A stretch of DNA of 64,000 nt, taken from contig CBDCTK010000002.1 in the NCBI GenBank assembly GCA_965222225.1, forward strand, positions 5,152,001-5,216,000, given 5' to 3'. The translations under genes were made by a program, and so were the position numbers. Source of the DNA: Candidatus Poribacteria bacterium (lineage in GTDB: Bacteria; Poribacteria; WGA-4E; JAJDTR01). Positions 8,680 through 45,063 of this stretch are shown here, piece after piece (the stretch's first letter is position 1; every line of letters begins with the position of its first letter). The notes under the pieces are model-generated. The model was not told the origin of the DNA. It searched no databases and saw only the letters and a program-made list of their open reading frames with translations.

Positions 8680-9765
8680 ATGGCTTCAGCGAAGAAAGTC
8701 GTCGTCGCGATGAGCGGCGGTGTCGACAGCTCAGTGACAGCCGCATTGATGCTTGAGTTAGGCTACGATTTAATCGGCATCACGATGCGGCTCGGAGCTC
8801 CCGATACGCTCGAAGTAGAATCGGGAAAGCCAAATTGTTGTTCGCTTGAAGGCATTGAGGATGCGCGGCGAGTGGCAACCCAGCTTGGGATTCCCTTCTA
8901 TGGCGTGAATTATGAGGAGATATTCCGGGAGCGCATCATTGATTACTTTGTCAATGAGTATCTTGATGGCAGAACACCGAGCCCCTGCATGATTTGCAAT
9001 CGAGAACTGAAATTCGGAAAACTTCTGTCTCTTGTCGATAGTTTGGAGTACGATTTCATTGCAACCGGTCACTATGCTAGAATTGAACAAGATCGAGACA
9101 CTGGACGATATCTTTTACTGAAGGGCGTCAATGCCAACAAAGACCAGTCCTATTTTCTGTCCGCGCTTACACAAGAGCAATTGAGTCGCGCGCTTATGCC
9201 ACTGGGTGGATTCACCAAAGATCAGGTGCGGGCGATGGCTAGGAGGTTCAAGTTGCGTACCGCCGATAAGCTTGAGAGCCAAGAATTGTGCTTTGTGGCG
9301 GACGACAACTATAGACGATTCCTGAAAGAACGGGTGCCCGAAAAGATTCACGAAGGCGATATAGTGGATAAAGATGGCAATGTACTCGGTACACATCAAG
9401 GTATCCCTTTCTATACGGTCGGGCAACGCCGCGGACTTGGAATTGCCGCCAGCAGCCCGCTGTACGTCACCCAAGTAGACGCCCAAAACAACACCATCGT
9501 TGTCGGTACACCCGCCGACTTGCTTCGGCGAACCATGCTGGTAGAGCGAATAAATCTGATTTCTATTCAACAGTTTGACGAGCCGATTCGTGCTCTCGTC
9601 AAAGTGAGATCTAGAGATGAAGGAGCGCTTGCCACCATACGCCCGTTGAGCGAAACCGAGGCGAAAGTCATATTTGATGAACCGCGACGAGCGATAACAC
9701 CGGGCCAAGCGTCGGTATTTTACGACGGAGATCTCGTCATTGGCGGCGGCTGGATTAAATCGTAA
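8680..9765 (+). CDS. mnmA: tRNA 2-thiouridine(34) synthase
   Basis: 'VVVAMSGGVDSSV', 'TPSPCMICN', 'ATGHYA', 'KDQSYFL', 'ESQELCF', 'YTVGQRRGLG', 'AITPGQ'. Confidence 0.97.
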   Translation: MASAKKVVVAMSGGVDSSVTAALMLELGYDLIGITMRLGAPDTLEVESGKPNCCSLEGIEDARRVATQLGIPFYGVNYEEIFRERIIDYFVNEYLDGRTPSPCMICNRELKFGKLLSLVDSLEYDFIATGHYARIEQDRDTGRYLLLKGVNANKDQSYFLSALTQEQLSRALMPLGGFTKDQVRAMARRFKLRTADKLESQELCFVADDNYRRFLKERVPEKIHEGDIVDKDGNVLGTHQGIPFYTVGQRRGLGIAASSPLYVTQVDAQNNTIVVGTPADLLRRTMLVERINLISIQQFDEPIRALVKVRSRDEGALATIRPLSETEAKVIFDEPRRAITPGQASVFYDGDLVIGGGWIKS

Positions 9766-9773
9766 CCGGTCGG

Positions 9774-9915
9774 GATCAAGCGACTGAATAAGGAGATCAA
9801 GCAAGCGAATAGCGATCAGCTGAGTGGTTAACGAAGGAGCAACTGACCGATAGGGAAGGCGGTAGAGATCCCATAGAAGATCCCGCGCGATAGTCATTCC
9901 TGCGATAGAGATCTC
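9774..9915 (+). repeat. nested cluster of 37-bp units (3 left halves, 1 full unit, 3 right halves)
   Basis: GATC starts at 9774, 9795 and 9814; full variant at 9837-9872; then three GCGATAG/ATAG...ATCCC-like right parts. Confidence 0.85.
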
Positions 9916-10044
9916 TTCTAGCCCGACCTGTGCGGCATAGTATGTCTTGATAGATTAAGGCGCTTCCCGCACATTTCGGACGGCTAACGCCGTATTTCTC
10001 TATAAACGCTTTCTCAAAGTATCCGGTAACAGGTGGCTGATTGT

Positions 10045-15907: not shown

Positions 15908-16076
15908 GATCGAAACCCCGAATAGTTTGTAGGGTGCGATCGACGATCATCAAATCATCGATTTCCCCTCTTACTGCGATCAACTGAGCGGATAGCGAAG
16001 GAGCAACTGACCGATAGGGAAGGCGGTAGAGATCCCATAGTGAGTGCGATAGCAAATCTCGTGCGATAGAGATTCC
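15908..16076 (+). repeat. REP plus nested 37-bp unit cluster
   Basis: GTAG REP at 15929-15974, left half at 15978, full variant at 16001-16036, two right parts; 45 bp are identical to 9832-9876. Confidence 0.85.
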
Positions 16077-27872: not shown

Positions 27873-28004
27873 TACGTGGATATAGTTTGTCAAAATTATG
27901 CCCCCTATCTACGATGCGCGTGAATCAATATTGCCAAGTTCTTGCGCAGTCTGGTTTGTAACCGCGATTCTCGATTATCGAACAACCCCAAACCAACACG
28001 TGAA

Positions 28005-28805
28005 TCACCGAATCAACCCTTCCCACGGGCTTGATGCCGTTGCGTACAGTTTCTTGGGAATCCGACCGGCTAGGAACGCCGTCCGTCCGGCTTCGATCGC
28101 TTTCCTCATGGCTTCCGCCATCAGCACCGGCTGTCGCGCCTTTGCAACCGCCGTGTTGAGGAGCACGCCGTCACACCCAAGTTCCATCGCAATCGCGGCA
28201 TCCGAAACCGTTCCAATTCCCGCATCAACGATCAAAGGAACGCTAACGATGTCGCGGATAATCTGAATGTTGTAGGGGTTGCGAATCCCCATTCCGGATC
28301 CGATCGGGGCGCCTAACGGCATAACGACCGCACACCCCAAATCTTCCAACTTCTTGCATGTTATCGGATCGTCGTTGCAGTAGGGCAACACCGTGAATCC
28401 ATCTTTAATCAACGTTGCCGCCGCATTTAGCAACTGTTCAACGTCGGGAAACAGCGTTCGGTCATCACCGATGACCTCCAACTTGATGAGGTCGGTGTCA
28501 AGCGCCTCTCGCGCAAGATGAGCTGTAAGAACCGCCTCTTTGGCGGTGAAACACCCCGCAGTATTCGGCAGAATCGTGTAATTTCTCTCCCGGAGCAGGT
28601 CGAACAGATTCTCCCCGGAATTCTCGCTCGGTTTTACTCGGCGAATCGCAATCGTAGCAATCTCCGCCCCACTTGCCTCAAGGGCGCGGGTCATCACATC
28701 GAAATTCGGATAGCCCGCTGTCCCGATAAGTAGGCGCGATTGATACGTCTTTTCACCGATTTTGAGCCCTTCCATCTTGTCTTTTCCCATTAACTCTGTA
28801 TCCAT
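28005..28805 (-). CDS. thiG: thiazole synthase
   Basis: 'SRLLIGT', 'LPNTAGC', 'IKLEVIGD', '[13 protein letters not shown]', 'VDAGIG', 'LLNTAVA'. Start may be a later ATG. Confidence 0.96.
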
Positions 28806-28888
28806 TCAATTCAATAGACATGAAAAGGAAGTATATCAATGTCATCCACCATTGTCAATCTCAATCGCCTTTTAGCCAATAGTAGCCC

Positions 28889-29043
28889 GTAGGTTGGGTT
28901 GAACGATCAAGCGAGTGGATAACGAGCGCGATAGAGATCCCAGTGCGATAGAGATTCTCAGGTGTATAGTAGAACAGGTCTCGCAGGACCACAAGCCCCA
29001 GAGGGGGATCAAACGAGTGAATAGCGATTGCGATAAAACTCCC
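28889..29043 (+). repeat. truncated REPs fused to two 37-bp units
   Basis: GTAGGTTGGGTTGAAC|unit 28905-28941 + right half; AAGCCCCAGAGGG|unit 29007-29043. Confidence 0.85.
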
Positions 29044-29447
29044 CGCAGGTAATATCACTCAACAGTTCAATAATGGCTTTGACATCAAATTTCCAAACAG
29101 GCTCTTAATCCGTGATTCATACAATTGTCGAATGCCTCTGATGGATTCTACAAGGTGTATGGCAACTTCCCTCTTCCACCCTTCCGTTCTTCCATCCTTC
29201 TCCACGCTTCATTTGCCACCAAAATTACATGCAATTGCCCGATGTTCTACCTCCGAAAAACTATTGAAAAAGCAAACTACCTGTGCTATCATAGCCAAAA
29301 TCGTCAAGCGTCTCTCTAGCCAAGATTGATGGCAACAACTATCGTGCACGTTCCAAACAAATATCTAATCCTTCAACACAATCTTCTGCTCGCACCTCCG
29401 CTTTTTGATGGACTGTCTCAAGCGCGAGTTCCGTAAGGTGAAAATCC

Positions 29448-30479
29448 ATGCAATCTTTTATTGATTCCAGAGATATTCTTGATAACGGCGCCGAACTGCA
29501 AAAACGTATGGAGCAGGACGGTTGCTTGTTTATCAGTGGTTTATTGCCCGGTGAAACGGTAGAACACCTCAGACTAAAGCAACTGAAAATCGGGCTTGAA
29601 GAAGGCTGGGTCAGTGCCGACGCGCCGCTTCAGGATGGGGTTGCGGACCTCAGCGACTTCGGTGTCGAACCGGAACCGGAGTATATGCGCGTCCTAGGTC
29701 GCATGACAAGTCTCCAAGAGTTCTACGCCTTAGCCCAGCACCCCAATCTCATCGGCATGTTTAATCGCATGCTCGGCGAGACCGTGCTACCCCATGCCAA
29801 GGTCATCGGACGCTGTCTCTTCCCGCAGCGCGAAGCATTCACGACACCGCCGCATCAGGACTATGTGTTCATTCGAGGAACTGCTGAAACCTACACCGCT
29901 TGGATACCGCTTCAAGATCTCCCCCCTGAAATGGGAGGCCTTCAAATTGCCGCCGGTTCGCACAAAAACGGTATTTACGAGTATAGACCGGCGCTTGGCG
30001 CGGGAGGCATGGGGGTTAACGAATCCTTGGAAGGCTCGTGGGCGAACAATCCGTTCAAACAGGGCGATGTGCTCATTTTTCACAGCATGGTCGTGCACAA
30101 AGGGGTTCCCTGCACGGGCAAACGGTTGCGCCTCTCGATTGATGCACGGTATCAGCGGCTTAGCGAACCGATTGGCCCCGGCAATCTTTCGCCGCATGCC
30201 GGAGGGTCGTGGGAGCAAATTTACGCGGATTGGCTCTCCGATGACTTCAAATACTACTGGAAGGGGTGGAATCTGGACGACGCCGATTATGCCAGCCGAT
30301 TCTCGGAGAGTGATGCAGAAGCGGCGGAAGTCGTTGAAGAACGAGATCGAATGGCGTTTGAAATGGGTGAAAACGGCGACACAAACGCAATTTCGGCGCT
30401 TCAACGTATAATGATGCGAGACGACAATCCGGAAAAACGCCAAAAAGCCGCCGACTTGCTGGATACATTGCAGATTTGA
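29448..30479 (+). CDS. phytanoyl-CoA dioxygenase (PhyH) family
   Basis: 'TPPHQD', 'YTAWIPL', 'GGLQIAAGSH', 'GDVLIFHSMVVH', 'RLSIDARYQ'. Confidence 0.9.
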   Translation: MQSFIDSRDILDNGAELQKRMEQDGCLFISGLLPGETVEHLRLKQLKIGLEEGWVSADAPLQDGVADLSDFGVEPEPEYMRVLGRMTSLQEFYALAQHPNLIGMFNRMLGETVLPHAKVIGRCLFPQREAFTTPPHQDYVFIRGTAETYTAWIPLQDLPPEMGGLQIAAGSHKNGIYEYRPALGAGGMGVNESLEGSWANNPFKQGDVLIFHSMVVHKGVPCTGKRLRLSIDARYQRLSEPIGPGNLSPHAGGSWEQIYADWLSDDFKYYWKGWNLDDADYASRFSESDAEAAEVVEERDRMAFEMGENGDTNAISALQRIMMRDDNPEKRQKAADLLDTLQI

Positions 30480-30542
30480 CGCGAATTCCGCTTCGATCCA
30501 AGAGCGTATAATCTAGTCTGACCTGTAGAAAAGGAGAGCTAG

Positions 30543-31208
30543 ATGGGTAACGTAGTGAACCGTGAAATTCACATTAAACGTGCGCCTTCCGGCATGTCTA
30601 CCGAGGACGATTTTGAAATTGTCGAAGTGTCAATCCCCGAGCCCGGTGCCGGCGGCGCGGTTGGCTCTCTCGTTTTCCAAATAGCCAAAATCTAAAGAAT
30701 GCCGCGTCGTCGGTAGCACGGGGGCGGACAAAACAGTGTCGTGGCTCGTTGATGAACTTGGAATGGATTCCGCTATCAATTACAAGAAGGTTGACGACTT
30801 GGGCGCGGAGTTGGGAAAACATTGCCCCGACAAAATAGACATCTTTTTCGACAATGTTGGCGGAAATCACCTTGAGGCGGCGTTATATCACATGAATCGT
30901 TTTGGCAGAATCATCGGCTGCGACATGATATCCGAGTTGAATTCGACGACGCCTCTACCCGGTCCCCCAATTTGGTTTACCTCTATACCCAACGAGTCAA
31001 ATTCCAAGGCTTCATCAGCAGCGATTATTCCGATCAGTTGCCGCAGTTTTACGAGGGCATGCGCACATAGATCGAGGAAGGACGAGTGAAATGGAAGGAG
31101 ACGATCCTCGAAGGGATAGAAAATGCCGCGTAAGCCATCGTAGGCCTTTTCAGAGGGGATAACTTGGGTAAGATGTAGGTGAAAATCGGTCCGGATCCGG
31201 CTATCTGA
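30543..31208 (+). pseudogene. NADP-dependent oxidoreductase (CurA/PTGR-like) remnant
   Basis: MGNVVNREIH...PEPGAG joined directly to GAVGSLVFQIAK (large internal deletion); later 'DIFFDNVGG' and 'GLFRGDNLGK'; frameshifts and in-frame TAA/TAG. Confidence 0.8.
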
Positions 31209-31292
31209 GTCTCATAACGCATACTAATTGAAGCAGAATGTTTTCTTGAAAACTCAATTGTTTTCTTGCACAGTCTTGCACCCTCTTACCGC

Positions 31293-31346
31293 AATCAAGC
31301 GAACGAACAGTGAGTGCGATAGTAAATCCCGTGCGATAGAGATCCC
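31293..31346 (+). repeat. 37-bp unit plus right half
   Basis: AATCAAGCGAACGAACAGTGAGTGCGATAGTAAATCCC-GTGCGATAGAGATCCC. Confidence 0.85.
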
Positions 31347-31481
31347 ACAGGTTAATAGCACTCAAATAACAAAAATTGTTTTACCACCGTGATTCAAAGA
31401 AGCCCTAATTGTTGTCATAACCTAAAGAAATCCACCTTGGTAGAACTCTTCACAAGACACATTTGAGAAAGGGGATTAGCC

Positions 31482-32528
31482 ATGGCTAGAACCGGACGCG
31501 CCACTGTGATGGTGGGCGAGCGCTTTGAAATACGCGAATATCCCGTACCCGATCCTGCACCGGGCACGGTCCTCTTGAGACAAGAACTCGGTGGTATCTG
31601 CGGCACCGACCTCCACAACTGGGAGTTTCAACGCATGGGGTTTGACGTCATTCCCGGTCACGAAAACGTGGGGGTGATTGACGCTTTGGGTGAAGACGTC
31701 GAAACCGATTACTTGGGGAATCCAGTGAAGGTCGGAGATCGCGTGGTGCTGTCCCCGAGCGTCGGCTACGGCTTCCTCCCATCGGAGGAGGCGCCTTACT
31801 TGCGCGGCGGCTTTGCGGAATACATTTATCTGTGGAATGCGGAGTCCATGTTCCTCAAGACCGAATTACGGCCCGAGATTGCGGTACTTAGCGAGCCTGC
31901 CTCGTGTGCCGCGCATTGCATTTCACGCGGAAAAATCCAGTTTGGTGACACCGTGGTTATCCAAGGAACAGGCCCCATCGGTCTCCTAGCGCTCAACTGG
32001 GCGAGAGTTTCGGGAGCGGGCAGGTTGATTGTTGTCGGAGGACCGCCGGGGCGTCTCGAAATGGCAAAGCGATTGGGCGCGGATGTCACAATCGACATTG
32101 CGGAAGTTCCAGATCCCGAGGAACGGAAGAAAATCGTCCGTGAGAATACACCTCAAAATAAGGGGGCTGACATCGTGTACGAATGTTCGGGTTTTCCCGC
32201 CGCTATTCCCGAAGGGCTGGATTTTATCCGCTACAGTGGCACTTACGTGGAATATGGCCACTTCGTTGATGTCGGAACGTTTGAGTGTAACCCCAACCAA
32301 ATGCTCATGCGCAAGAATCTGCGATTGGAAGCCGGATGGGGTTTCCGACCGCACCACTTCATCCGAGCGGTGCCGATGCTCGAAAAACACCAATCTCTCT
32401 TTACTGACTTTGTCAGCCACATTCTTCCTTTAGAGGATGTCGCTCAAGGCTTCAATGCCCTGCACACCAGCTACAATCTTGACGGTCGAGACGCCATCAA
32501 GATCGCCATCAAAGGCGGTTTAGCTTGA
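31482..32528 (+). CDS. zinc-binding MDR alcohol dehydrogenase
   Basis: 'GICGTD', 'GHENVG', 'GDRV', 'GTGPIG', 'YECSG'. Confidence 0.9.
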   Translation: MARTGRATVMVGERFEIREYPVPDPAPGTVLLRQELGGICGTDLHNWEFQRMGFDVIPGHENVGVIDALGEDVETDYLGNPVKVGDRVVLSPSVGYGFLPSEEAPYLRGGFAEYIYLWNAESMFLKTELRPEIAVLSEPASCAAHCISRGKIQFGDTVVIQGTGPIGLLALNWARVSGAGRLIVVGGPPGRLEMAKRLGADVTIDIAEVPDPEERKKIVRENTPQNKGADIVYECSGFPAAIPEGLDFIRYSGTYVEYGHFVDVGTFECNPNQMLMRKNLRLEAGWGFRPHHFIRAVPMLEKHQSLFTDFVSHILPLEDVAQGFNALHTSYNLDGRDAIKIAIKGGLA

Positions 32529-32592
32529 TGAGGGACAAAACCTTGCTTGAGATAGAGTTTTCGAACTCAAGGACATACGCCAATTGAGGTTT

Positions 32593-32658
32593 GTAGGCTG
32601 GGCAATTCGATGAGGCGAGCGAATTATGACTGCGATAGAACTCCCATAGAAATTTCTC
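32593..32658 (+). repeat. truncated REP plus diverged 37-bp unit
   Basis: GTAGGCTGGGCAATTC|GATGAGGCGAGCGAATTATGACTGCGATAGAACTCCC|ATAGAAATTTCTC. Confidence 0.7.
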
Positions 32659-32789
32659 TGAGATTGCAGAATCGTAGATGAAATTCTCAAAGTATTCAAA
32701 GTATATAGAAACGCCGATTCACTGCGCAGCAAAAGACCTTGATTCATCAAGATTCGCATCGTGCTCCTCTATTCAGCGAGTTCCCTAAC

Positions 32790-32823
32790 TGCACGGTCTG
32801 GATTGATAAATCCAGACCGTGCA
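32790..32823. repeat. perfect 15-bp inverted repeat
   Basis: TGCACGGTCTGGATT-gata-AATCCAGACCGTGCA, no U-tract. Confidence 0.7.
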
Positions 32824-32971
32824 CTTGAATGTGCTAGTCTAGCTACTCCGAGTGCGCGCTCACCGGGTAGACTAAAAATTTCTAACTAACATTTCTTAGT
32901 TTTATCAGTTTTATCAGCAATTATTGCCGAAACAAATCGGCAGACTAAATAGTTACGATGTAAGATAACCA

Positions 32972-33814
32972 ATGGCGGGAAAGACAATTATCACCGCGGC
33001 AGTGGTAGGATCCAGTCCTGCGAAAGAGATGAATCCTGCTGTGCCGTACACACCGAAGGAGATTGCGGAGGCTGCCATCGTGTCTTGCCGGGCGGGAGCC
33101 GCCATTGCCCACATCCATGTGCGCGACCCGGAAACCGGAAAACCCGATTCATCGATTGAGTTATTTCGAGAAGTTGTTGATCGAATCCGTCAATCCTGCG
33201 ACATTGTGATTAATCTGACAACTAGCGGCTATAATATCACCGGTGACGACGTCATTGAAAAGCGCCTGGAACCTGTCACATTGGGGCCGGAAATCTGTTC
33301 ACTGGACATCGGTTCGGTGAATTTCGCGAATGCCGCGTTTGTCAATTCCCCGGAGTGGGGCAGGACTGCGGCGGCTCGGATGCGCGACCACGGGGTAAAA
33401 CCGGAGATTGAAGCCTTCGACGCGGGTCACATGCGTCAAGCTGTCAATTGGGTTGCGGAGGGACTGTTTGACGACCCGCCATATTTCCAACTGTGCATGG
33501 GGGTCGGTTGGGGAATTCAGGCCTCGCCGGAGAACCTTCTGCTTATGCAGAGGCTTGTGCCGCCCTCCTGTCCGTGGTCCGTTTTGGGCGTTGGAAGACA
33601 TCAATTGCCCATGATTACAATGGGCGTGATTTTGGACGGCCACATACGGGTCGGTTTTGAGGACAATATCTATGTCAGCAAAGGGGTGTTAGCTAAGAGC
33701 AATGCTCAGATGGTGGATATGGCTGCAAACGTGGTAGAGACCCTCCAACACCAAGTAGCCACGCCCGATGATGCGCGTCGAATACTGGGTACTTCTAGTC
33801 GTAGCACGAGCTGA
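32972..33814 (+). CDS. beta-keto acid cleavage enzyme (3-keto-5-aminohexanoate cleavage, DUF849)
   Basis: 'NPAVPYTPKEIA', 'AHIHVRD', 'SLDIGSVNF', 'KPEIEAFD', 'HIRVGFEDN'. Confidence 0.92.
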   Translation: MAGKTIITAAVVGSSPAKEMNPAVPYTPKEIAEAAIVSCRAGAAIAHIHVRDPETGKPDSSIELFREVVDRIRQSCDIVINLTTSGYNITGDDVIEKRLEPVTLGPEICSLDIGSVNFANAAFVNSPEWGRTAAARMRDHGVKPEIEAFDAGHMRQAVNWVAEGLFDDPPYFQLCMGVGWGIQASPENLLLMQRLVPPSCPWSVLGVGRHQLPMITMGVILDGHIRVGFEDNIYVSKGVLAKSNAQMVDMAANVVETLQHQVATPDDARRILGTSSRSTS

Positions 33815-34109
33815 CAACTTCGTTTCGACCTGCTGTCCTACCAAAGGGCGACTAACCGGAAATATACGGATAGCTTCAATCCTCATCTGTACGTTAATTA
33901 AATAGCACGTGTTCTAATCGTCGAGGGAATTTTCGGCTGCCTGTGAGTTCGATGTACAGATTCTGCGGTAGCATTGTCCTCTCTACGGAGGCGCACCGGG
34001 GGAAAAGACAACCCGGGTTTGCGGGTGCTTTTCCCCCTCACCTCGTTTCCTCTTGGGACATTTTGTGCCCTATATCCAACTGGAAGTCACTCGTACCGTA
34101 AGAATGCTA

Positions 34110-34150
34110 TAAAAAAGCACCCAACCAAGACATTGATGGGTGCTTTTTTA
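34110..34150. terminator. bidirectional intrinsic terminator
   Basis: TAAAAAAGCACCCA...TGGGTGCTTTTTTA, downstream of the RRM gene. Confidence 0.8.
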
Positions 34151-34186
34151 GGGTGGTTGGTAAGTAATGCGTTAGGTTTTTACCAT

Positions 34187-34513
34187 CTACCATCTATTAC
34201 CGCCACCACCACCACCGCTACCGCCACCGCGTCCCCGTCCACCGCCGCGTCCCCGTTCACCGCCGCGGTCTTCCCGAGGGCGTGCTTCGTTGACCTTGAT
34301 TGCACGTCCCTGTAACTCGCTACCATTAAGTTCCTGAACTGCTCGCTCGCCATCGGCTTTCTCTCGCATTTCGACGAACCCAAACCCTTTTGATTGACCA
34401 CTGTACTTGTCCATGATAATGTTGACAGCGTCAACTTCTCCGAAAGCCGCAAATAGCCCCCGCAATTCATCATCTGTGGCATCGAACGATAAATTGCCTA
34501 CGTAGATGTTCAT
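34187..34513 (-). CDS. RRM RNA-binding protein with Gly/Arg-rich tail
   Basis: RNP2 'IYVGNL', RNP1 'KGFGFVEM', 'VNEARPR'; GGAGA RBS before the ATG at 34513. Confidence 0.93.
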   Translation of the reverse strand: MNIYVGNLSFDATDDELRGLFAAFGEVDAVNIIMDKYSGQSKGFGFVEMREKADGERAVQELNGSELQGRAIKVNEARPREDRGGERGRGGGRGRGGGSGGGGGGNRW

Positions 34514-34820
34514 ATTTGTCTCCCAAATCGGTAAAGGCAAAAGAAAAATGTCATCAGACAACAGTTTTGTCTGTGCCATCTTTAATGTTTTTAAGAGTGG
34601 ATTGAAATGTGCCTGTTATCGCGGTGTTTTGGCAGGAAACATAGAATGGTAGGAATAAAAAACTGATTCTTATTCATCAAGGCTAGCTGTCAAAATACTG
34701 CTCTTTTTCTTGAAGGGCGAAAATTTCGCGCTTCAATTTCGGACACAACCGGTATTATAACACAGATTCGTAATTTGCGCAACATTCCATACTATTTCTG
34801 ATGTCAACCCGTGGGCCACT

Positions 34821-35402
34821 CTATAACCGTCTATTAACCCTATGTCGATCGGCAGAATTTGCTCCTGATGGGGGCATAGACCGCTGATTAACGGACAAAT
34901 AGCGTTTCGGCGGCGCGGTAGAGATAATATCAATCCAAACGAGTGTGGCGTCCTCCGTGTGTGATTGTACGACGAATTTGGCGTTGTCCGAAGATAAATG
35001 TGAGCCACGCGGATAATAAATCGTGGCAAACGTGCCGAGTATCAGGAGCACAGCGAACGTAGCAGCAAACGTAAAGGACGGTGCACGCTTGAGCACGCTG
35101 TTGTGAGGCCAAGCCATGGCGGATTCCAGTCTCTGCCAGATTCGGTGTCTTAAAGATGTTCGCAATTTCTCGCTTGCGGAGACCTCCGACGCCCGGTACA
35201 TTACGTCTGAGACGAAATCGTCTGAGGTTTTGACGAGGTCGAGGCGATGAAGGATTTCGTCAGTCTGTCGAATTCGCACAGCCTCGTGCGCGCACGTTGA
35301 GCACTGTCCAAGATGCCACTTAATCAACTGAATCTTCCACAGTGGCATCTCGCGGTCAAGATACGCGGAGATTTCGGACTGTATACCTTCACACTTTAGC
35401 AT
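34821..35402 (-). CDS. zf-HC2 anti-sigma factor
   Basis: 'CEGIQSEISAYLD...HLGQCSTC' and one TM segment; overlaps the end of the sigma gene. Confidence 0.82.
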   Translation of the reverse strand: MLKCEGIQSEISAYLDREMPLWKIQLIKWHLGQCSTCAHEAVRIRQTDEILHRLDLVKTSDDFVSDVMYRASEVSASEKLRTSLRHRIWQRLESAMAWPHNSVLKRAPSFTFAATFAVLLILGTFATIYYPRGSHLSSDNAKFVVQSHTEDATLVWIDIISTAPPKRYLSVNQRSMPPSGANSADRHRVNRRL

Positions 35403-35988
35403 TAGAACTCTCTCCAATTCCAACCTCAAGCAGAAGCGTTTTCATATTTTGGCGCGCCCGGTGAATCAATGATTTCACCGCGCTCACGGAGCAATTCATG
35501 ATTTCGGCAATTTCGTCGTATCTTAAATCTTGATAGGTTACCAAGTTTAACGCTATACGCTGATTATCCGGGAGCAGATTCAGCGTTTGCTGGATCATCA
35601 ACTGCTGCTCCTTCTTTTCATAAAGCTCATCGGGCAAATAACTTACGTCCCGCATGACATACGAATAATTAATGTCTTCGCCCTCCGAAACAAGATCGTC
35701 GAGAAAAACCGTGTTGCGTCGGTGCCGATTTCGCACCTCGTTCCGGCAAAGGTTCGTCGCAATCAGATAAATCCAGTTCTTGAATTGACACTTGGGCTCG
35801 TAACTGCTCGCGCTACTCAGAACCCTGATAAACGTCTCCTGTGCCAGATCTTCGGCGCGCTGGTAGTCGTAGATACACCGATGGATATAATTGATTATTA
35901 AGTCCTTGTAGCGTATGACCAGAAGTTCGAACGCACTCATATCGCCGTTTCGACATCTCGCCATCAACTCTTCGTCCGAAGTTCGCAA
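35389..35988 (-). CDS. ECF RNA polymerase sigma-70 factor
   Basis: 'AEDLAQETFIRV...WIYLIATNLCRN', 'YDEIAEIMNCSVSAVKSLIHRAR'; GGAGG RBS. Confidence 0.93.
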   Translation of the reverse strand: MRTSDEELMARCRNGDMSAFELLVIRYKDLIINYIHRCIYDYQRAEDLAQETFIRVLSSASSYEPKCQFKNWIYLIATNLCRNEVRNRHRRNTVFLDDLVSEGEDINYSYVMRDVSYLPDELYEKKEQQLMIQQTLNLLPDNQRIALNLVTYQDLRYDEIAEIMNCSVSAVKSLIHRARQNMKTLLLEVGIGESSNAKV

Positions 35989-36181
35989 CGCGCACCTCCA
36001 TTTCTCAACAAGAGGGCAGCGGGTCTCACTCTAGATGCACCGTGTTCTTCTAAAACACCAGTAAGCCCCTCTGAGTTTCGCACCAAAGTGTCAGAAATTC
36101 ACAAAAACCGCTCTTGGGCAGGCGTCAAAAGTATACTTCATATTTTGAAGATGGTGTAGAGAAAAGATCTGGGTCGCTCCC

Positions 36182-36548
36182 GTGCGATAGAAATCTAAGC
36201 AGCCTTATGTCCGTGCGAAACGCTGTAGGAGCGATTTCCGAATCGATCAAACGAATGGACAGCGATCGACCGAACGATTAGTGAGGGCGATAGCAAATCC
36301 CGTGCGGTAGAAATCCTTAGAAGTCAGGAATCGGAATTCCCTCCTACCCAAATCACACGCTCTATAATCGATATTGCCACCTAATGTAATTTGAAATCAA
36401 GATCGACTTTGTAGGGTGGGCATTGTCCACAAGCCTTTGAAAGCGCCAGTGGCAATCAAGTGAGTGCACAACGATCAACTGAACGAATAGTGAAGGCGAT
36501 AGTAAATCCCGCGCGATAGAAATCCCATAGAACACCGTGAAACCCAAC
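36182..36548 (+). repeat. two nested 37-bp-unit clusters interleaved with REPs
   Basis: Left 36245 + full 36264-36301 + right; left 36454 + full 36473-36510 + right; GTAG REPs at 36225 and 36411; REP right arm at 36531-36548. Confidence 0.85.
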
Positions 36549-36630
36549 TCTCTAACTACTCGCAAGCCAACCCACCTCTACACTAAAGTTGAAGTTCAGA
36601 CCAACTTAAGGTATACTGAAAGCAACCGAT

Positions 36631-37614
36631 GTGCTCATTCTAAATAATCTCCCTAGAACGAATGCGGGGCGTTGCCTTTTGATTAAATCGTCTTTCCTCT
36701 GCCTCTTCGCTCTATTTCTGATTGCATCGTCCGGGACACGCGCCGACGCACGCGAATCATGGGATTTGGTAGAGAGCGAAAATTTTCTGGTCTACTACCA
36801 CGGCAATGTCAAATCGGCGCAGAAAATCGTTGATATTGCGGAAGATTTCTACCCCAAAATGCGCCGCTTAATGGGCGATGTCCGCCTAGGTAAGATCGAG
36901 ATTTGGGTTTGTGAGGCGCAGTCAGAGTTTCAGGCAGCCGTTCATGCTCCCATTCAAGACTGGGCGATCGGCTGCGCATTTCCGCTCAGTCGGCGCATAA
37001 TCATCCAAAACCCGCGTGTCATCATTCAGCGTGATTTTCAGTTATCCCAAGTCATCCGCCACGAAATCGTCCACATTATCTTCGGGCAGCGTACCCAAAA
37101 AGCAATCGGCAAGATTCCGCGATGGTTCGTGGAAGGCATAGCCATTTATTTCTCGGGCGAGTGGGCGCCTCGGCGCAACGATGCGCTGATGAAACATATC
37201 TTCTCAAAGTCGGTGATTCCGCTTGCCGAGCTCACGCACGGATTCCCGAAATCTGGAAACCTCGCGCAACTGGCGTACGCGGAAAGCCAAAACGCCGTTG
37301 CGTGGCTGGCGGAAACCGAGGGTGTTGAAAAACTATGGGAGATTATCGACCGGCTTGCAAGCGGCAGCGATCTGGATACCGCCTTCCAAGATTCAATCGG
37401 ATTACAACTTAGCACCTTTGACGCGAAATGGCGCAAGTCACTATCCCGGCGCTACCATTGGGCGGCAATGCTCTCAAGTTCCTATCTCTTTTGGGGAAGC
37501 CTGGCGCTTTTCTTCATGCTAGTCTACCTTCGGTACTGGCGTTACAAACGAAGGCGGCTTCGTCAACTAGAACGCGAGTCGGAAGAGGAGGATGCCTTTT
37601 TCATTGAGCGATGA
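36631..37614 (+). CDS. peptidase MA-like zinc metallopeptidase with C-terminal TM anchor
   Basis: 'IRHEIVH' (HExxH), 'PRWFVEGIA', 'LAYAES'. Confidence 0.8.
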   Translation: MLILNNLPRTNAGRCLLIKSSFLCLFALFLIASSGTRADARESWDLVESENFLVYYHGNVKSAQKIVDIAEDFYPKMRRLMGDVRLGKIEIWVCEAQSEFQAAVHAPIQDWAIGCAFPLSRRIIIQNPRVIIQRDFQLSQVIRHEIVHIIFGQRTQKAIGKIPRWFVEGIAIYFSGEWAPRRNDALMKHIFSKSVIPLAELTHGFPKSGNLAQLAYAESQNAVAWLAETEGVEKLWEIIDRLASGSDLDTAFQDSIGLQLSTFDAKWRKSLSRRYHWAAMLSSSYLFWGSLALFFMLVYLRYWRYKRRRLRQLERESEEEDAFFIER

Positions 37615-37650
37615 TATAAATTTTCTTGTAACTCGGAGAACCCAAAAGTT

Positions 37651-38142
37651 ATGCGCGATAATCTTTTTGTGCCAAACAAAATGGCTTATGTCAAAGGGAA
37701 AGCAAAACCTGATGTCGAGTGCATCCTGTGTGCCATTGTCGAAGGAGACGAACGGGTAGAGCGTTTGGACATTTACCGAGGCGAATTATTTACGATTTCG
37801 CTGAATCTCTACCCGTATAGCCCGGGACATCTAATGATTTTTCCCAATCGCCATATTGTTGACGTTCGAGAATTCACTCGTGAGGAGGTTGTCGAACTGC
37901 ATCGCCTTCAATGTCGCTCCCTTGAAGTATTGGATCGCGTATACCAACCCTACGGATACAACCTCGGTTTCAATGTCGGACAAGCGTCAGGCGCAAGCAT
38001 TCCGCATGTACATGCCCACGTTGTCCCGCGCTACCCCCGCGAGCTGGGATTCATTGACGTTATCAATGGCGCCAGAATTATAGTCGAAGATCCAAACGTG
38101 ACACAAGACAAACTCCGCCAAGCGTTTAACGCAGACGATTAG
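37651..38142 (+). CDS. HIT family hydrolase
   Basis: 'CILC', 'LNLYPYSPGHLMI', 'HVHAHVVPR'. Confidence 0.92.
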   Translation: MRDNLFVPNKMAYVKGKAKPDVECILCAIVEGDERVERLDIYRGELFTISLNLYPYSPGHLMIFPNRHIVDVREFTREEVVELHRLQCRSLEVLDRVYQPYGYNLGFNVGQASGASIPHVHAHVVPRYPRELGFIDVINGARIIVEDPNVTQDKLRQAFNADD

Positions 38143-38179
38143 TGTCTGATGCTGCGTTCAACCATCCGCTCATTTGATA

Positions 38180-41100
38180 CTATTTTACTATCACCGCCCT
38201 GCGCGACGCCGAAAACCTTCCCGCAACAAACCGCAAGAAGTACACACCGCTGGAGACCTGCTCTCCGTTCTGGTTCTGACCATCCCAATATGCGGCTTCC
38301 GAACGTGTCAGGTAGTACCCGGCGGGTTTAAAGCCGAGCGGGATTTGCCGGACGAGGCGCCCTCCGGTGCCATGGATAAATAGTGTCACATCTGCTCCCT
38401 AGGCTAACTGATACGGTATCCATGTCTCCAGGTTAAACGGGTTGGGGAAATTCGGGAGTAACTTCGTTTCTGCCACGGTCTGCGTCAGGTGCGTTAGCCA
38501 AAGGCGTAGAAGCCGAATCGCCGCCTCAACACCGCCTGATATTTCGGATATTTCTTCCAATGCGTTCAAGGCTTGGTTAATAGCAATGGCCTCTTCGGGC
38601 GTGGCAACTTTCGATTCGGAGATATCAGACGCGGTGGGCGCTGCGGCGGCGTTTTCACCAAGCGCCCCTGCCACCAGCACCAGGTCTAGCACGTTAACCT
38701 GTCCATCCTTGTTCACATCCGTCCGCGCGTTACGTGGCGGCTTTTGTCCAAACTCCTGTGCAACAAGCACAAGATCCAGAATATTGACCATTCCGTCCCG
38801 GTTGACATCTTCGCTAGACTGACTTTCAACCCCTTCTGCGGTGATAAACAAATCCGCCCAATTCGCTTTGTCAGAACTTGCGCTTCCAGCCGGATTTGTC
38901 ACCAATTCCAGCAATACGATTTCACCCGCAAACTCGGCAAGAGAAATCTGGGCATCCACCCAGCCTGATGTGTCTATGAATCGTTCAAATTGAGATTGTC
39001 CGTTTAGTAATACTTGGAAAAGAACTCCATCACTTTGACTACCCCCTTCCCCCAGGCCCATTGAAAAAGCGAATGTCACATCTCGGGCTTGGGGCAGAGC
39101 GAGCAAAAACTGAAGAATTGTCTCCCCATCACGAGGTGGATGGGCGAAAATGGTTTCCTTACGCACGCCGCCGGACGTAGCCGCCGTTCGTGCGCCCGAA
39201 TTCCAAGCGCTGCCCAGCCGAAAAATACCTTCAAACTCAAGCCCGGCAACAAACTCGGCCTCTCTAAGATTGTACGGTGGCACCACTTGTTGAACAGGTT
39301 CAAAGAACAGGAGGATTTTCGCTGGCAGTGCGGTTTCGAGATAATACTGTCCCTGTCCGACAGACCGAATTTTCGCGGGCAAACGCTTTATAGGCTTATA
39401 AGGCAGGAAGAACCCTACGTTTATGTGTGTTATGTGTGTATCGACTGGATCGGCGACGATTTTGGGTTTCCCCCAAACCGCCCAATCCCAGCCCGTATTT
39501 CCGGCAGGCCCTGGATTCGTGGTAAAACGTAGGATGACGTTCTCGCCGCTGTAGGGAGTTAAGTTCAGGAGAATGTGCTTCCACCGCTGTTCGTGGTGGT
39601 GTTGACGAAAGATCTCTTCGCCTTGCACGGAAACGATGAACGTCACGCCATCGGAGTTTTCGGAACCGTCCCGCAATCCGATATTGAATTCTAGATTGAT
39701 TCTGGGGCTTTCCGGAAGCGCAAGCGTAAATTCACCGAACGTGTCGCCGCTAGCCCCTTGGTGAGGGGGATGCGCGTAAATCGCCGCCTTTCGAGTGCCA
39801 GCAACAGTGGCTTCGACTCGCCTAAAGGTAGCTCCTCTTTGCCCAGTTAATTCTTGCCCGTCAAGGATGATTCCTGTCCTCACAAGATGAAACCTAGACA
39901 TTAGATCAATGTCGTCCGAGCCGCGAACGCGTTCCAACCGGAACACGGCGGCATTCGTCGTCACGCGCGTCTCTGTCACGGAGACCCCTTCCGGCAAGGC
40001 ATTAATATGCACTTGTGAAAAATCGCGTGGCAAATCACTCAAGAGATAATTTTGATTCGGATTCAACCCGAGTATCGTGGTTTGGTTGTATGCGCGCCAT
40101 TGCGGTAGGGTTCGCTCAGTTATCGCTTGCGTTACGCCAGAAAACACTCTCTCGTACCCTGCGCTACCCCGAGGTAAAACAAGCACAGAACCAGTGTCTG
40201 TCGTTTGCTGCCTTGCAATTTCACCGTCTTGACCGACATACTGGAATAGGGTTCCCGATTCCCAAGCCCCTTCAAAGTCGGGTTTCAAACTAAGTTGTTG
40301 CCATTTTCGGGCGACCGAGAGCAGTGTTTGTGTCCCAGTATATGAGGGATTCAACAGTTCCAACCTGAGGCGAAGTGTCGGCAAGACTCCCCAACTCTCA
40401 TAGGAGTCGAGGTGCTCTTGATAAAGTTGCGGATTTCTATCTAGTTCCGGCAATGACAAATGGCCGTAGGGTAATGTATAAGGAGAGAAGAGAAACGCGC
40501 TAATCGGATGTGCTTTTGCCTCCGGCGAGAGTCTCGGGCGTTGTGAAAAACTCTCCCGAAAGAAGGTGACTTCGTGAAGTCTTTCGCCGCTGAAAACAAC
40601 CCGCGGCATCGCTTCCGCCAATTCCTTATGGAGCAGTGCGTTGCCTTGGGAAGCATTTAAGCCTTCAATCAGTCCATTGGCATCATTTATCACAACGTGA
40701 CTGATATCCAAATGGAATGCATCCACTCCGTATTTTTTCCACACATCGTTCAGTTGTTTAACGAATAGTTTTCTAAATGAAGAATCAGCGAGATTAATGA
40801 AAGCATGGCGTCCAGGGTTGTCTGTTTCACCCCACCGCCAACCAATCGGATTCCCATTCCAGGGATCCCGAAATTGAGAGTTCTGAAATTTTGCGTATAG
40901 GGGATGGTAAGGCGAGACTCCTACGAGATTTGTATGAGGCATTACGCGGAATCCGTGTTGATGTGCGGCTTCAACAAAACGCCCAAAACCGTCTCGTGCC
41001 GCGTAATCGGGATAATTTACATCGTAAGCATATTTGCGCCACCCAACCAGATACAGTAAGGTTTTTGCCGGATTGATTAGTTCTGCCAGCCGATCCAAAA

Positions 41101-41994
41101 ACCGGGTGTCCAAATCGGCGTAGATGATAACCAAGCCAATGTCGTCAACCCATGCTGGCATTTCTGACAGTCGCCAAGGGTTGAAAGTTTGTTCAATCCA
41201 GTTCCGATACTGCTCGGCAGGCACACGCCAGTCGCCGGTGTATGTATTCAATCGCCACGTCACAGATTTAGCGGAAGTTAACGCATCGAAAGGGGCTTGG
41301 TTGTGCGTTTGAAAACCCAGCGCGAAACTGTCCAAATCCCGTTCGTAGCGGAGTTCCTTAAACTGAAATGTCGGGTCTGTACCGCGAACGAAAAAACCGC
41401 CATGCTTTCCCTGAATAATTGCAAGTTGCGTTTCCCAAGCGCCCGGATAGCCAAAACTTCTTGAAGCATTTGGATATGCCGCGTCAATAATCTGCCCGCC
41501 TTCCGCGGGAAGAATGAGCTCCAGATTTCTGATATCCAGATTCCCGCAGCCCCACTGGATTCCATAAACCCCCGGTGCATCAGAAACTCCGTCCTGTCCA
41601 ATGAGCAAGTCGTTTGTAGACTCGTCAACGGCTATAGACAGCCTGAATTCGTTCTGTCCCTCCCGAAATACAATCTCGGCTTCAAGCGGGGCTATTTTTC
41701 TTGCTTCGGTTAACGTAGCCTCCGATATCCAGATAGGGAGTTATGCTTCCTCAATATCCCGCTCTGCCCACCAAGACCCCTAGAAAGACCGGCGGCATCA
41801 GGCGGTAAGGTATACACTTCGTCTGTTATCTTGTTGGCAATCTGATTGATAACGCCGTTCTCAAACCGAACCTCGTAAGTGTCCGTTTCGACAATGACAG
41901 TGTTATCATGGACGGTAATTTTGGCGGCTTGCACCGCCTCGGTATGAAGCATAAACAGGACGCTGCAAAGGCTTGCTATGACCAAATTACGCAA
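38180..41994 (-). pseudogene. large secreted protein (GH-like barrel, two carbohydrate-binding-like modules, dockerin-like repeat, FlgD-Ig tail) with one frameshift and one in-frame TAG
   Basis: GGAGG + TTG at 41994 and a signal peptide; a missing C near 41737 restores NSPIWISEATL; 'DVNRDGMVNILDLVLVA'-type repeat twice; 'PNFPNPFN.ETWIPYQLA*GADVTL...YWDGQN..GE.VSSGVYF' continues in frame past the TAG at 38399-38401. Confidence 0.75.
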
Positions 41995-42086
41995 TTGAGT
42001 TCCCTCCATAGAAACGTAAGACATAAAACAAAACCGGGAAAACGTTGGCGTTTTCTTGCATGTAGCCCCAGTTTGATGATCCATTT

Positions 42087-42150
42087 GTAGGGTGCGCACT
42101 GCGCACCAGCCTTTGGAAGCACCAGCGGCGCGACAGGTAAACGTGTGTAG
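42087..42150 (+). repeat. GTAG REP-like hairpins
   Basis: GTAGGGTGCGCACTGCGCACCAGCCTTT, also at 36411, 54022 and 58769; followed by a GCACCAGCGGCGCGACAGG-type hairpin. Confidence 0.75.
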
Positions 42151-42283
42151 GAACTCAAATGCCGAAAATGACTTCCTTCCTATATTCGAACAGATTTTAA
42201 ACAGTTACGAATAAAAGTAGACTCATCAACCGCTCCGGAAGATTGAGCGTGGCATGGAATCCAATCTTCCATCCTTCTCAACC

Positions 42284-43183
42284 TTACCCATCGGGATCCG
42301 TAACAATCTGCGTCCCAATCCCCTCCGAAGTAAAAACCTCAAGCAAGAGCGCGTGGCTAATTCGTCCATCAATGATGTGCGCTTTGGAAACGCCGCCGAA
42401 GATGGCGATGGTGCACGCCTCAACCTTTGGAAGCATGCCGCTGCTAATCACCCGATCGGCGATCAAACCCTCAATCTCCTCTGTCTTCACCGTGGGAATC
42501 AGTGTTGAATCGTCATCCAAGTCTCGCAAGATGCCCCGCTGATCCGTAAGTAAAATCAGTTTTTCTGCCTTGAGTGCGGCGGCGATTTCGCCTGCCATCG
42601 TATCCGCGTTTATATTATAGGTGCAACCATCTTCTCCAACCCCGTTCGGCGCAATAACAGGGATGTAGCCATCCCGATCGAGCGACACAATGACGCTGGG
42701 ATCGACATGCGCGATGTCGCCGACGAAGCCAAGATCAACGTCCGTCGCCTCACCGAGGTCGTCGACAACGTGCGCAAAATGCTTTCGTGCGCGAATAAGG
42801 TTGGCGTCTTTGCCGCAAAGCCCCACGGCGCGTCCCCCGTGCGCGTTGATAAGCGAGACGATTTCCTTGTTGATGGTTCCAGCCAACACCATCTCGGCGA
42901 CCTCAACCGTTTCCTGATCCGTGACGCGCAGCCCCTGCACAAATTCGGCGTCCTTGCCGATCCGCTGCATCCACTCACTAATCTTTGTTCCTCCGCCGTG
43001 CACAACAACAGGATGCATACCGGTATACTTCATCAAAACGATGTCCTGAATCACACTATCCTTTAGGGCGTCGTTTTCCATGGCGGCTCCGCCGTACTTA
43101 ACCACGATGGTTTTTCCGAAGAATTGACGGATATATGGAAGCGCTTCAATTAAGATATCTGCTTTCTTTACCAATTCATCCAT
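42284..43183 (-). CDS. argB: acetylglutamate kinase
   Basis: 'EALPYI', 'VVKYGGAAM', 'VVHGGG', 'GLRVTD', 'NINADT', 'GMLPKV', 'GIGT'. Confidence 0.97.
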   Translation of the reverse strand: MDELVKKADILIEALPYIRQFFGKTIVVKYGGAAMENDALKDSVIQDIVLMKYTGMHPVVVHGGGTKISEWMQRIGKDAEFVQGLRVTDQETVEVAEMVLAGTINKEIVSLINAHGGRAVGLCGKDANLIRARKHFAHVVDDLGEATDVDLGFVGDIAHVDPSVIVSLDRDGYIPVIAPNGVGEDGCTYNINADTMAGEIAAALKAEKLILLTDQRGILRDLDDDSTLIPTVKTEEIEGLIADRVISSGMLPKVEACTIAIFGGVSKAHIIDGRISHALLLEVFTSEGIGTQIVTDPDG

Positions 43184-43249
43184 TTGCTATCTCCGTTGGA
43201 TAAACTCGGAATTTAGTCCTCACATCCTGTTTGAAAACCCATGTGGTGC

Positions 43250-43351
43250 GTAGGTTGGGTTGAGCGGAAATCCCTGAGAAATCACACATAGAAAGAGAAC
43301 TTTCGAGGTTTCATTTCGCCCTAAAGGGCCGAAATTCGAGTGAAACCCAAC
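43250..43351 (+). repeat. ~100-bp GTAG REP-like element
   Basis: GTAGGTTGGGTTGAnCGGAAATCC...GTGAAACCCAAC; homologous copies at 45064-45166 and 57633-57732, short forms at 46840 and 55440. Confidence 0.8.
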
Positions 43352-44927: not shown

Positions 44928-45063
44928 CGTCTATCACATGCCTTTGCACATATCCTTGCGTTTCAAATGTCCGTGCGCAAGTATGAAATTGCATAGCGTT
45001 AATATTCCAAAACCGGATTATACAACAATTTGCCTTGGATTGAAAGAACAAATCATAGTGTGC

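Follow-up and report, generated by a model that had tools for sequence, protein, structure and literature searches.

Composition of the nested cluster

The window, that is, the whole stretch of 64,000 nucleotides (64 kb) of Candidatus Poribacteria DNA analysed here, holds at 9774-9915 on the plus strand a cluster built from a 37-nt repeat, with three left fragments, then a diverged full unit, then three right fragments, as determined by reading the sequence and by parsing it with a 37-position profile derived from 586 full copies. The cluster starts 8 nt past the TAA stop codon (9763-9765) of a plus-strand gene, and these eight bases, CCGGTCGG (9766-9773, plus strand), are recognizable in the sequence as the 5' arm of a host REP-like hairpin of the family 'GTAGGTCGG [GC] TTCCAGCCCGACC', empty copies of which are found at other sites of the genome. 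The outermost left fragment (L1, 9774-9794, 31.1 bits in the parse) comprises unit positions 1-21. It is followed by L2 (9795-9815, 31.5 bits), which consists of positions 1-19 and a GA common to the next piece, and by L3 (9814-9837), which covers positions 1-24 with a diverged start, GATCAG, of which the parser scored only positions 9-24. The last G of L3 is shared with the innermost full unit (9837-9872), a diverged copy of 36 nt with a GAGCAA start and a 1-nt loop deletion that reads GCGGTAG, and that was parsed as positions 4-13 and 15-37.

The right fragments, all likewise on the plus strand, follow in the inverse sequence of their partners. The partner of L3 (9873-9884, from sequence and parse) has positions 27-37 and one extra base; that of L2 (9885-9900) has positions 22-37 with a diverged tail, only 22-30 being scored by the parser, and its stem bases 22-23 (GC) are complementary to positions 7-8 (GC) of L2; that of L1 (9901-9915, 24.0 bits) has positions 23-37. 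Paired inside-out in this manner, the fragment lengths sum to 35-36 nt. The remainder of the host hairpin loop and the 3' arm GCCCGACC (9916-9928, arm at 9921-9928, plus strand, read from the sequence) close the structure. The closest complete relative, G005, keeps GTAGGTCGGGC...GCCCGACC at the orthologous site and has no unit there; the cluster is in fact absent from the orthologous site in all nine relatives examined, one of which (G007) carries other units nearby. The intergenic DNA around 9774 is too diverged among these nine relatives for the timing of the layers.

Further clusters on the plus strand of the window were resolved by the same parse. The combination of L(1-24) and the diverged inner unit seen at 9774 recurs at 15978-16076, where it is followed by two right fragments. 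A left fragment, an inner unit and a right fragment are found at 36245-36317 (L 1-20, R 22-37), at 36455-36526 (a diverged short L, a full unit, R 22-37), at 45365-45435 (L 1-24, R 27-37, 71 nt in total) and at 62014-62084 (L 1-23, a 37-nt inner unit, R 27-37), the orthologous G005 site of the last being one intact unit. Two left fragments and a full unit without any right fragment lie at 53939-54009. Conversely, a full unit is followed by a right fragment without a left partner at 28905-28958 (R 21-37) and at 31294-31346 (a 38-nt tail variant, R 22-37). On mixed strands, a plus-strand unit at 57792-57871 is split by a minus-strand full unit (57815-57851), which represents one case of opposite-orientation nesting. 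An 11-nt tail repeat was flagged at 45414-45435. In the window as a whole the left-half pattern has 21 matches, of which 20 are on the plus strand, against 0.25 expected, and none of 100 shuffles reached 21; the right-half pattern has 28 matches against 5.4 expected.

The preliminary description, made from sequence alone, had read the cluster at 9774-9915 as three lefts, one full unit and three rights, and this reading held, with the qualification that the full unit is diverged and 36 nt long. The left-full-right composition given there for 36245, 45365 and 62014 was also recovered by the parse, and that for 36454 held in the form of a short diverged left fragment, a full unit and a right fragment. 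The cluster with lefts only (53938) proved to be L-L-F without a right part, and the two with rights only (28905 and 31293) to be F-R without a left part.

Anatomy and fold of the 37-nt unit

A loose-pattern scan of the whole genome (5.70 Mb, two contigs) found 591 full copies, of which 586 measure exactly 37 nt; in all, some 800 full and about 1700 partial copies are present. The ends of the unit are conserved in the 586 copies, with GATCAA at the 5' end and GCGATAGAGATCCC at the 3' end; the two ends (GATCAA and GATCCC) are unrelated to each other. Positions 7-8, 11-12, 18-19 and 22-23 are variable and covary: the pairs 7-23, 8-22, 11-19 and 12-18 are standard in 94-98% of the copies, each with at least three pair types. 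Together with the tandem G.A/A.G formed by positions 9-10 and 20-21, which is invariant, and a loop G(A/G)ATA, they describe a hairpin whose stem has only four Watson-Crick pairs and the tandem G.A. Wobbles in this stem are G.T in 299 instances against A.C in 33, and the fold is therefore selected on the given strand only.

The nearest-neighbour energy of the hairpin is merely -1.8 kcal/mol (z 0.5), and neither the unit nor the composites fold better than shuffled sequences. As these energies give the hairpin no advantage, it is covariation that supports the fold. Covariation without a stable folding energy makes it likely, by inference, that the unit hairpin has a protein partner. No Rfam family matched at the gathering threshold across the window, or at E values up to 5 around 28850-29100. 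Taken as a whole, the unit of this sponge-symbiont genome is probably a mobile DNA element that is non-coding and, at 37 nt, very small, resembling REP sequences.

Order of fragments in the genome

The profile scan returned 2171 segments of at least 20 bits, compared with 84 in the reversed sequence. Clusters were called by a jumping-profile Viterbi parse around seeds, with the reversed sequence as control, and amounted to 1545 genome-wide versus 97 in the control. They represent 168 distinct strings of left fragments (L), full units (F) and right fragments (R), the commonest being F (474), R (163), L (123), LF (88), LFR (87) and FR (66). The pieces within a cluster are co-oriented and abut without spacers, and no regular spacing was seen. 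Neighbouring clusters less than 60 nt apart lie on the same strand in 305 cases and on opposite strands in 158.

The order of pieces is strongly constrained. Among neighbouring tokens, L is followed by F 249 times, F by R 234 times, L by L 196 times, R by R 177 times and L by R 96 times; the reverse orders F to L (30), R to L (28) and R to F (8) are rare, as is F to F (18). The same is evident when all pieces of a cluster are compared, with L before R in 487 pairs against 54 in the opposite order, L before F in 329 against 54, and F before R in 342 against 20. Furthermore, 71 of the 87 strict L-F-R clusters measure 71-73 nt, two full units being 74 nt.

Breaks in the outer unit fall after positions 10, 12/13, 17/18, 19-21 and 23/24. 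The left junctions lie at a G of the outer unit, and G or GA is shared at most of them; given as the last position of L, the first position of the next piece and the gap, they include (24,2,0) 76 times, (13,2,0) 54 times, (20,2,0) 47 times, (17,1,0) 46 times and (10,1,0) 25 times. Right fragments begin at position 27 (112 times), 22 (72 times), 21 (42 times) or 15 (28 times). When left and right fragments were matched as a stack, 98 of 288 pairs had fitting breakpoints, whereas 1000 shuffles of the partners gave 43.9 on average and never more than 63. In 36 of 54 clean L/R pairs both split stem pairs are complementary, against 42% for shuffled partners, a genuine signal of moderate strength. 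At the variable stem positions, a left fragment is usually not identical to the unit after it. Unpaired fragments are numerous: 456 L and 545 R have no partner, while matched pairs number 247. Inner units were not found to be less diverged than outer ones (mismatches at conserved positions 4.4% inner versus 3.0% outer, not significant, and subject to ascertainment bias). At C2:1543617 an identical 23-nt left fragment occurs three times, a local duplication.

Filled and empty sites and orthologous gains

Filled and empty versions of the same site gave 1172 matches in about 40 distinct flank families, a count which is inflated by copy number inside families. The empty site always has 1-4 extra bases, and a duplication was never observed. 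Typical empty sites are GTAG-tagged palindromes, in which the unit takes the place of the last bases of the 5' arm.

Orthologous sites were compared between the genome under study (G000) and its closest complete relative, G005, of which 829 kb were used and whose coding identity is about 85-92%. Syntenic sites with unique flanks numbered 26 from G000 clusters and 28 from 376 G005 clusters. Three self-nesting differences with conserved flanks were identified, each with a net gain of 34 nt. At 62014 of the window the intact unit of G005 corresponds in G000 to positions 1-23, a 37-nt unit and positions 27-37, so that GCG (24-26) has been replaced. The other two gains are in G005, where an extra unit lies after position 10 of a left fragment (C2:2938450) or replaces GCG at 24-26 (C2:2696516, minus strand). 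At three more sites a unit is present in G005 and an intact GTAG hairpin in G000, with GCAT, GAA or GGTT replaced. The empty state is taken as ancestral because the empty hairpins are intact palindromes and as such implausible products of excision. These orthologous sites in a sister species establish insertion beyond inference, and together with the filled and empty matches they show that the incoming unit replaces 2-4 target bases without duplicating the target.

Contigs of four public runs (X3, X4, X7 and X8) showed no allele with an inner unit more or fewer over 28000-47900 of the window. These contigs stop at nearly every cluster, only 36245-36317 being bridged (X3 and X7, without gaps), so the absence of inner-unit alleles from the reads says little either way. 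The units thus break short-read assemblies of Poribacteria at nearly every cluster.

In the light of these data, most of what had been proposed in the preliminary description is supported. Its claim that left halves precede and right halves follow a full unit held genome-wide, and the two genome-wide checks it had suggested, on order and on paired lengths, came out with right-before-left order rare and with lengths that are supportive, at 9774 as well as in the strict L-F-R clusters. Its exclusion of tandem duplication as the main source held as well, given the scarcity of F-F neighbours and the differences between left fragments and the units that follow them. Insertion into copies of itself without target-site duplication is supported by order, lengths, breakpoint fit and the three orthologous sites. 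The proposed insertion at positions ~19-26 held in part, since breaks also occur after 10, 12/13 and 17/18. The shared G or GA was confirmed, and the exact event can now be stated: a 37-nt unit takes the place of 2-4 target bases. An accompanying deletion in left-only and right-only clusters remains plausible without direct evidence; such unbalanced strings are common, LF and FR being of the same order as LFR. The allele check in reads, also suggested there, carries little weight for the reason given above.

Targets, strand bias and mobile composites

The closest GTAG upstream was located for the 1072 clusters whose left end is complete. The distance from the end of GTAG to the unit is 5 nt in 158 and 4 nt in 65 of them, about 3.5 being expected per offset, with further accumulations at 12 nt (53) and at 0-2 nt (101). 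Hence 223 of the 1072 clusters have a GTAG 4-5 nt upstream, on the same strand and as part of a REP-like host hairpin. The downstream mirror motif CTAC showed no matching peak (at most 13 of 822 clusters, at offset 10). The presence of the upstream peak and the lack of a downstream one imply that units go into GTAG hairpins on the strand that carries the tag. The genome contains 431 GTAG hairpins that are empty and have a perfect stem. The bases before the unit follow only a loose rule, with G in 75% of cases at -2 and C or G in 93% at -1, and a perfect flanking stem of at least 5 bp is present in only 12% of 701 clusters versus 4% of controls. Hairpin targeting is clear for the GTAG families and has not been shown for all sites. 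For GTAG hairpins and the unit's own hairpin, our data show that self-insertion is one case of a wider hairpin targeting.

As a separate matter, ATAG at unit positions 15-18 was considered as a mimic of the GTAG+5 arrangement for the 23/24 site. This idea was rejected, since left fragments with a break at 21-24 are depleted in G18: they have 63 G to 82 A at this position, whereas solo units have 295 G to 159 A (p 7e-6).

Clusters are mostly intergenic: only 234 of 1540 (15%) lie more than half inside ORFs, which cover 80% of the genome. Their direction relative to the flanking gene is nearly balanced (481 co-oriented, 404 anti-oriented; Spearman -0.09, not significant). By contrast, unit orientation correlates with GC skew in 100-kb bins (Spearman -0.66), and the correlation persists, at -0.64 (p 2e-7), once the component of the skew linked to transcription has been subtracted. 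The bias is shared by the empty GTAG hairpins, whose correlation with replication-type skew is -0.55; the regional orientations of units and empty hairpins correlate with each other at +0.75. Unit orientation thus tracks replication-type GC skew and not gene direction.

Nested composites bounded by unit ends are also copied as a whole. L(1-24) together with an inner unit bearing three private changes is common to 9774, 15978 and C2:1654711, where the outer layers differ, and further composites recur at many loci. It follows that the three layers at 9774 need not reflect three insertions on site, and that part of the nesting is inherited.

Distribution in Poribacteria

In a species-representative collection, the 101 matching stretches all belong to Candidatus Poribacteria. 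Among 31 related genomes, an exact 30-base pattern occurs in all nine genomes of the same genus (g1), with 280-761 copies in each, and in all four g4 genomes, with 111-126 copies in each; it occurs twice in g2, and no copy was found in the 16 genomes of g3 and g5-g9. A reversed control pattern gave zero matches in every one of the 31 genomes. The order of pieces is also conserved, since 101 eight-kb loci from other Poribacteria genomes contained 71 LF, 51 FR, 28 LL and 23 RR neighbours versus 7 FL, 7 RL, 2 RF and 1 FF.

Proposed mechanism

We consider it likely that the following steps, taken jointly, best explain the observations. The first of them are shown by the data above. A copy of the unit, or a whole composite, integrates in the upper part of a DNA hairpin and replaces 2-4 bases, with no duplication. 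The favoured target is a GTAG-tagged REP-like hairpin, entered 4-5 nt past GTAG on the same strand, and the unit's own hairpin serves as a target too, after positions 10, 12/13, 17/18, 19-21 and 23/24. Repeated hits on an earlier copy build up left...full...right stacks such as the one at 9774-9915.

The remaining steps are inferred. The reaction might take place on single-stranded DNA at the replication fork, and the enzyme would be a tyrosine transposase (Y1/HUH) related to those of IS200 and RAYT. It would make two closely spaced cuts in the target strand and join the element between them. A second cut at the outer unit's own end would leave a left-only or right-only cluster, and no separate deletion step would be needed. 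The enzyme is unidentified. A Y1/HUH transposase acting on single strands is the candidate we favour, but only tentatively, and we regard its involvement as slightly more doubtful than probable. Only indirect signs point to it, namely the replication-type strand bias, the one-strand wobbles and the presence of Y1 genes.

Five Y1_Tnp hits were found in the genome, two of which are flanked by units as '-> gene <-', an arrangement with a background of only 17 in 4267 ORFs. Y1_a, an intact protein of 157 aa encoded at C2:3080255-3080728, reaches 65.8 bits with the NCBIfam IS200 model, whose cut-off is 55, and a unit lies 10-14 nt past the stop codon of the Y1_a orthologues in G000, G001 and G005. 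However, no Y1 gene matches the distribution of the unit in the 31 genomes: Y1_a is found in g6, where no units were found, and is absent from two of the four g4 genomes. Y1_b, likewise intact and 247 aa long, was examined as the cognate enzyme and rejected, as it occurs in only three g1 genomes. Y1 genes may have acquired their flanking units merely because units land in the REP hairpins around such genes.

The strand preference deserves comment. On the leading strand, G generally exceeds C. By this usual rule, the folding strand of the unit would be on the lagging-strand sequence, the opposite of what is the case for IS608-type elements.

A bolder reading is possible, according to which the unit is a minimal single-strand element, a hyperparasite of the REP/RAYT system that borrows an HUH enzyme recognizing GTAG hairpins and moves by a 'swap' reaction. 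The element would be defined by its two ends only, two cuts would be made a few bases apart in the top of the hairpin, and the element would be ligated between them. As its own hairpin would also be a substrate, the unit would nest in itself and the composites would stay mobile. If true, this would be a mode of transposition with neither duplication nor clean insertion, which is not known to have been described for bacterial repeats, and the clusters would constitute a natural record of the in vivo cut sites of RAYT-type enzymes.

Alternative explanations

The alternative that survives best, although we judge it unlikely, is template switching without a dedicated transposase. Here a polymerase that has stalled at a hairpin on one strand would jump by G/GA microhomology to a unit elsewhere, copy it and return a few bases downstream, so that the top of the hairpin is skipped. 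In favour of this model, the two pieces have a G or GA in common at most left junctions, replacement affects a few target bases and no duplication occurs, the targets are hairpins, orientation tracks replication-type skew, and no enzyme has been identified. Against it, the ends of the inserted block are near-perfect (from 1 to 37, with 586 of 591 copies exactly 37 nt), which a G or GA would hardly enforce; the fixed distance of 4-5 nt from GTAG on one strand only suggests sequence-specific recognition; and composites bounded by unit ends move whole.

Nesting might instead have been rare, the nested clusters being copies of a handful of ancestral composites. Consistent with this, an outer unit broken at 13/14 around one and the same inner unit is found at more than eight loci, and the core of L and inner unit at 9774 is common to two other loci. 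The 168 cluster strings with many outer/inner stem combinations, the three lineage-specific self-nesting gains in just 829 kb compared with G005, and the same ordering in other genomes nevertheless render this explanation very unlikely.

Still less probable in our view is that the units are selected structured RNAs, such as 3'-UTR stabilisers or terminators, whose nesting would reflect RNA function and not mobility. The G.U-compatible wobbles on one strand would fit, as would the mostly intergenic position of the clusters and the location of the one at 9774 only 8 nt past a stop codon. On the other hand, orientation is nearly independent of gene direction (481 versus 404; rho -0.09), neither an Rfam match nor a folding energy better than that of shuffles was obtained, and the filled and empty sites would be left unexplained.

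Finally, partial tandem duplication or slippage, with deletions in tandem arrays producing the fragments, can point to the threefold 23-nt left fragment at C2:1543617 and to the tail repeat at 45414-45435, but is all but excluded, because F to F neighbours are few beside L to F and F to R, the model predicts R to F (8) and F to L (30) at the frequency of the opposite orders, most left fragments do not match the next unit at variable stem positions, and the orthologues show the gain of a whole foreign unit.

Comparison with known systems

The closest likeness is to REP and BIME sequences and their RAYT enzymes, with which the unit shares a size of 20-40 nt, hundreds of intergenic and clustered copies, a covarying hairpin with G.T wobbles, and Y1 genes that in some cases have inverted copies on either side. 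For REPs, a position within palindromic targets has been reported (PMC3733652), and TnpA_REP of E. coli binds GTAG and the hairpin and cuts single strands (PMC3479197). In size, copy number and extragenic location the unit qualifies as a REP (37 nt, 586 exact-length copies, 1545 clusters, a covarying hairpin). It lacks, however, the tag, since there is no GTAG or CGTC at the unit ends and the upstream GTAG belongs to the host hairpin, which is also found empty. As to a REPtron, two of the five Y1 hits have the '-> gene <-' arrangement, yet no Y1 gene is co-distributed in the 31 genomes. BIMEs alternate, whereas unit copies in a cluster are co-oriented and nested, and the unit enters GTAG REPs as a second, distinct element. 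The word 'nested' was not found in the two REP papers that were searched for it.

REPINs are likewise short, non-autonomous repeats inherited in a lineage, for which a single-strand HUH mechanism has been proposed (PMC3116915, PMC3337134). In REPINs, which are mobilised by single-copy RAYTs, the mobile entity is an inverted doublet folding into one long hairpin, whereas here it is a single 37-nt unit or a nested composite, and higher-order REPINs have been described as tandem and not nested. With co-oriented pieces and orthologous gains of single units, our repeat does not qualify as a REPIN. The SDR4-6 repeats of Nostocaceae (Elhai et al., 2008, Genome Res 18:1484) are also dispersed, 21-27 nt long and proposed to be mobile; according to statements in papers citing that work, SDR5 lies precisely inside the HIP1 palindrome, and nested SDR copies are reportedly described in Elhai et al. 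(2008). They belong to another phylum and differ in sequence and length, and by sequence the unit is not a member of the SDR1-8 families.

IS200/IS605 elements and their gene-less derivatives resemble the unit in the lack of target duplication, a hairpin end, strand-specific insertion tied to replication and the Y1 enzymes, which are present here. Such elements, IS608 among them, insert 3' of a fixed 4-5-nt target without removal of bases and have two different ends. The unit, in contrast, has one hairpin, replaces 2-4 bases, is loose in its target sequence, including the preceding base, and shows the opposite strand bias by the usual skew rule; it does not follow their target rule. IS1397, ISPpu9 of the IS110 family and IS621 also target REP-like palindromes, but are protein-coding and about 1-1.5 kb long, while the unit has 37 nt and targets itself as well. 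It does not qualify as a MITE, having no terminal inverted repeats and no duplication in the 1172 matches or the orthologous cases, nor as a CRISPR array, as the pieces abut without spacers and regular spacing.

The literature searched, supplementary files excepted, contained neither a description of this repeat nor one of REP-like units that nest in themselves with base replacement; a prior description cannot be excluded. The mobility of REPs and REPINs has been treated as inferred and the mechanism of strand transfer as unresolved (PMC3116915, PMC3337134, PMC3479197). The family described here provides exact junctions by the hundred, targets in both the filled and the empty state, and gains that distinguish two sister species. 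From this junction record the extent of the inserted block can be read with single-base accuracy, as can the loss of 2-4 bases, the fixed spacing to GTAG and the strand, which makes the mobility mechanism of REP-like repeats directly testable. Moreover, as composites of 71-73 nt and more still move, the length of the element is free, which bears on the building of larger mosaic repeats from small ones. The 37-nt unit thus works like a REP-type repeat, yet it is not a REPIN, a MITE, a CRISPR array or, by its target rule, a derivative of IS200/IS605.

Insertion sites and variants of the unit

The GTAG-tagged REP-like hairpins that are the favoured landing sites of the 37-nt unit constitute an ordinary repeat family of their own, distinct from the unit. 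Across the genome, 431 empty copies (without an inserted unit) with perfect stems were found, and the family comprises several stem types, among them GTAGGGTGCGCA.., GTAGGCGGGGCA.. and GTAGGTCGGGC... Genome-wide, the hairpins and the unit have a strand bias in common. One member has its arms at 9766-9773 and 9921-9928 of the window.

A common variant of the unit is 38 nt long and differs in the tail, where position 30 is separated from position 31 by an additional base (GCGATAG[C/T]AAATCCC), as exemplified by the window copies at 31294-31330 and 36265-36301. Among left fragments genome-wide, A instead of G at position 18 is more common in outer units split at positions 21-24 (82 A, 63 G) than in solo units (159 A, 295 G).

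Unit-dense regions and further repeats

The small second contig C1 (63 kb) also bears the unit, with three full copies on the minus strand in addition to clusters. On contig C2, a unit-dense region with near-regular arrays was observed at 1,534,000-1,585,000, in which different short repeats, TCTTGTAGGGAGC and CTATATGTAGGGTGC among them, stand in place of the unit tails, and which includes a tandem of three identical 23-nt left fragments (C2:1543617).

In the window, contigs of public runs were stacked to 10-40x the adjoining depth at about 36323-36352, 45253-45284, 38000-38600, 42000-42600 and 44600-45900, and such contigs joined 36347 with 45253; further repeat families are therefore present at these places.

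RAYT-like Y1 genes

Among genes of the Y1-HUH transposase class, considered as candidate enzymes for movement of the unit, two matches in the genome under study (G000), other than the fragment described next, are short or broken (one with a TAG stop, one of 124 aa). A RAYT-like fragment of 73 aa (C2:3560325-3560519) retains only the C-terminal part, and a unit cluster sits where its N-terminal side is missing, as though unit insertion had truncated the gene. The 247-aa RAYT-like Y1 protein (C2:2563965-2564705) is 99% identical to that of the sister species G005, the closest complete relative (C1:3780663-3781403), whereas syntenic genes of both species share only about 85-92% identity. Since it is moreover present in only 3 of the 10 genomes of the genus, its gene may have been transferred recently.
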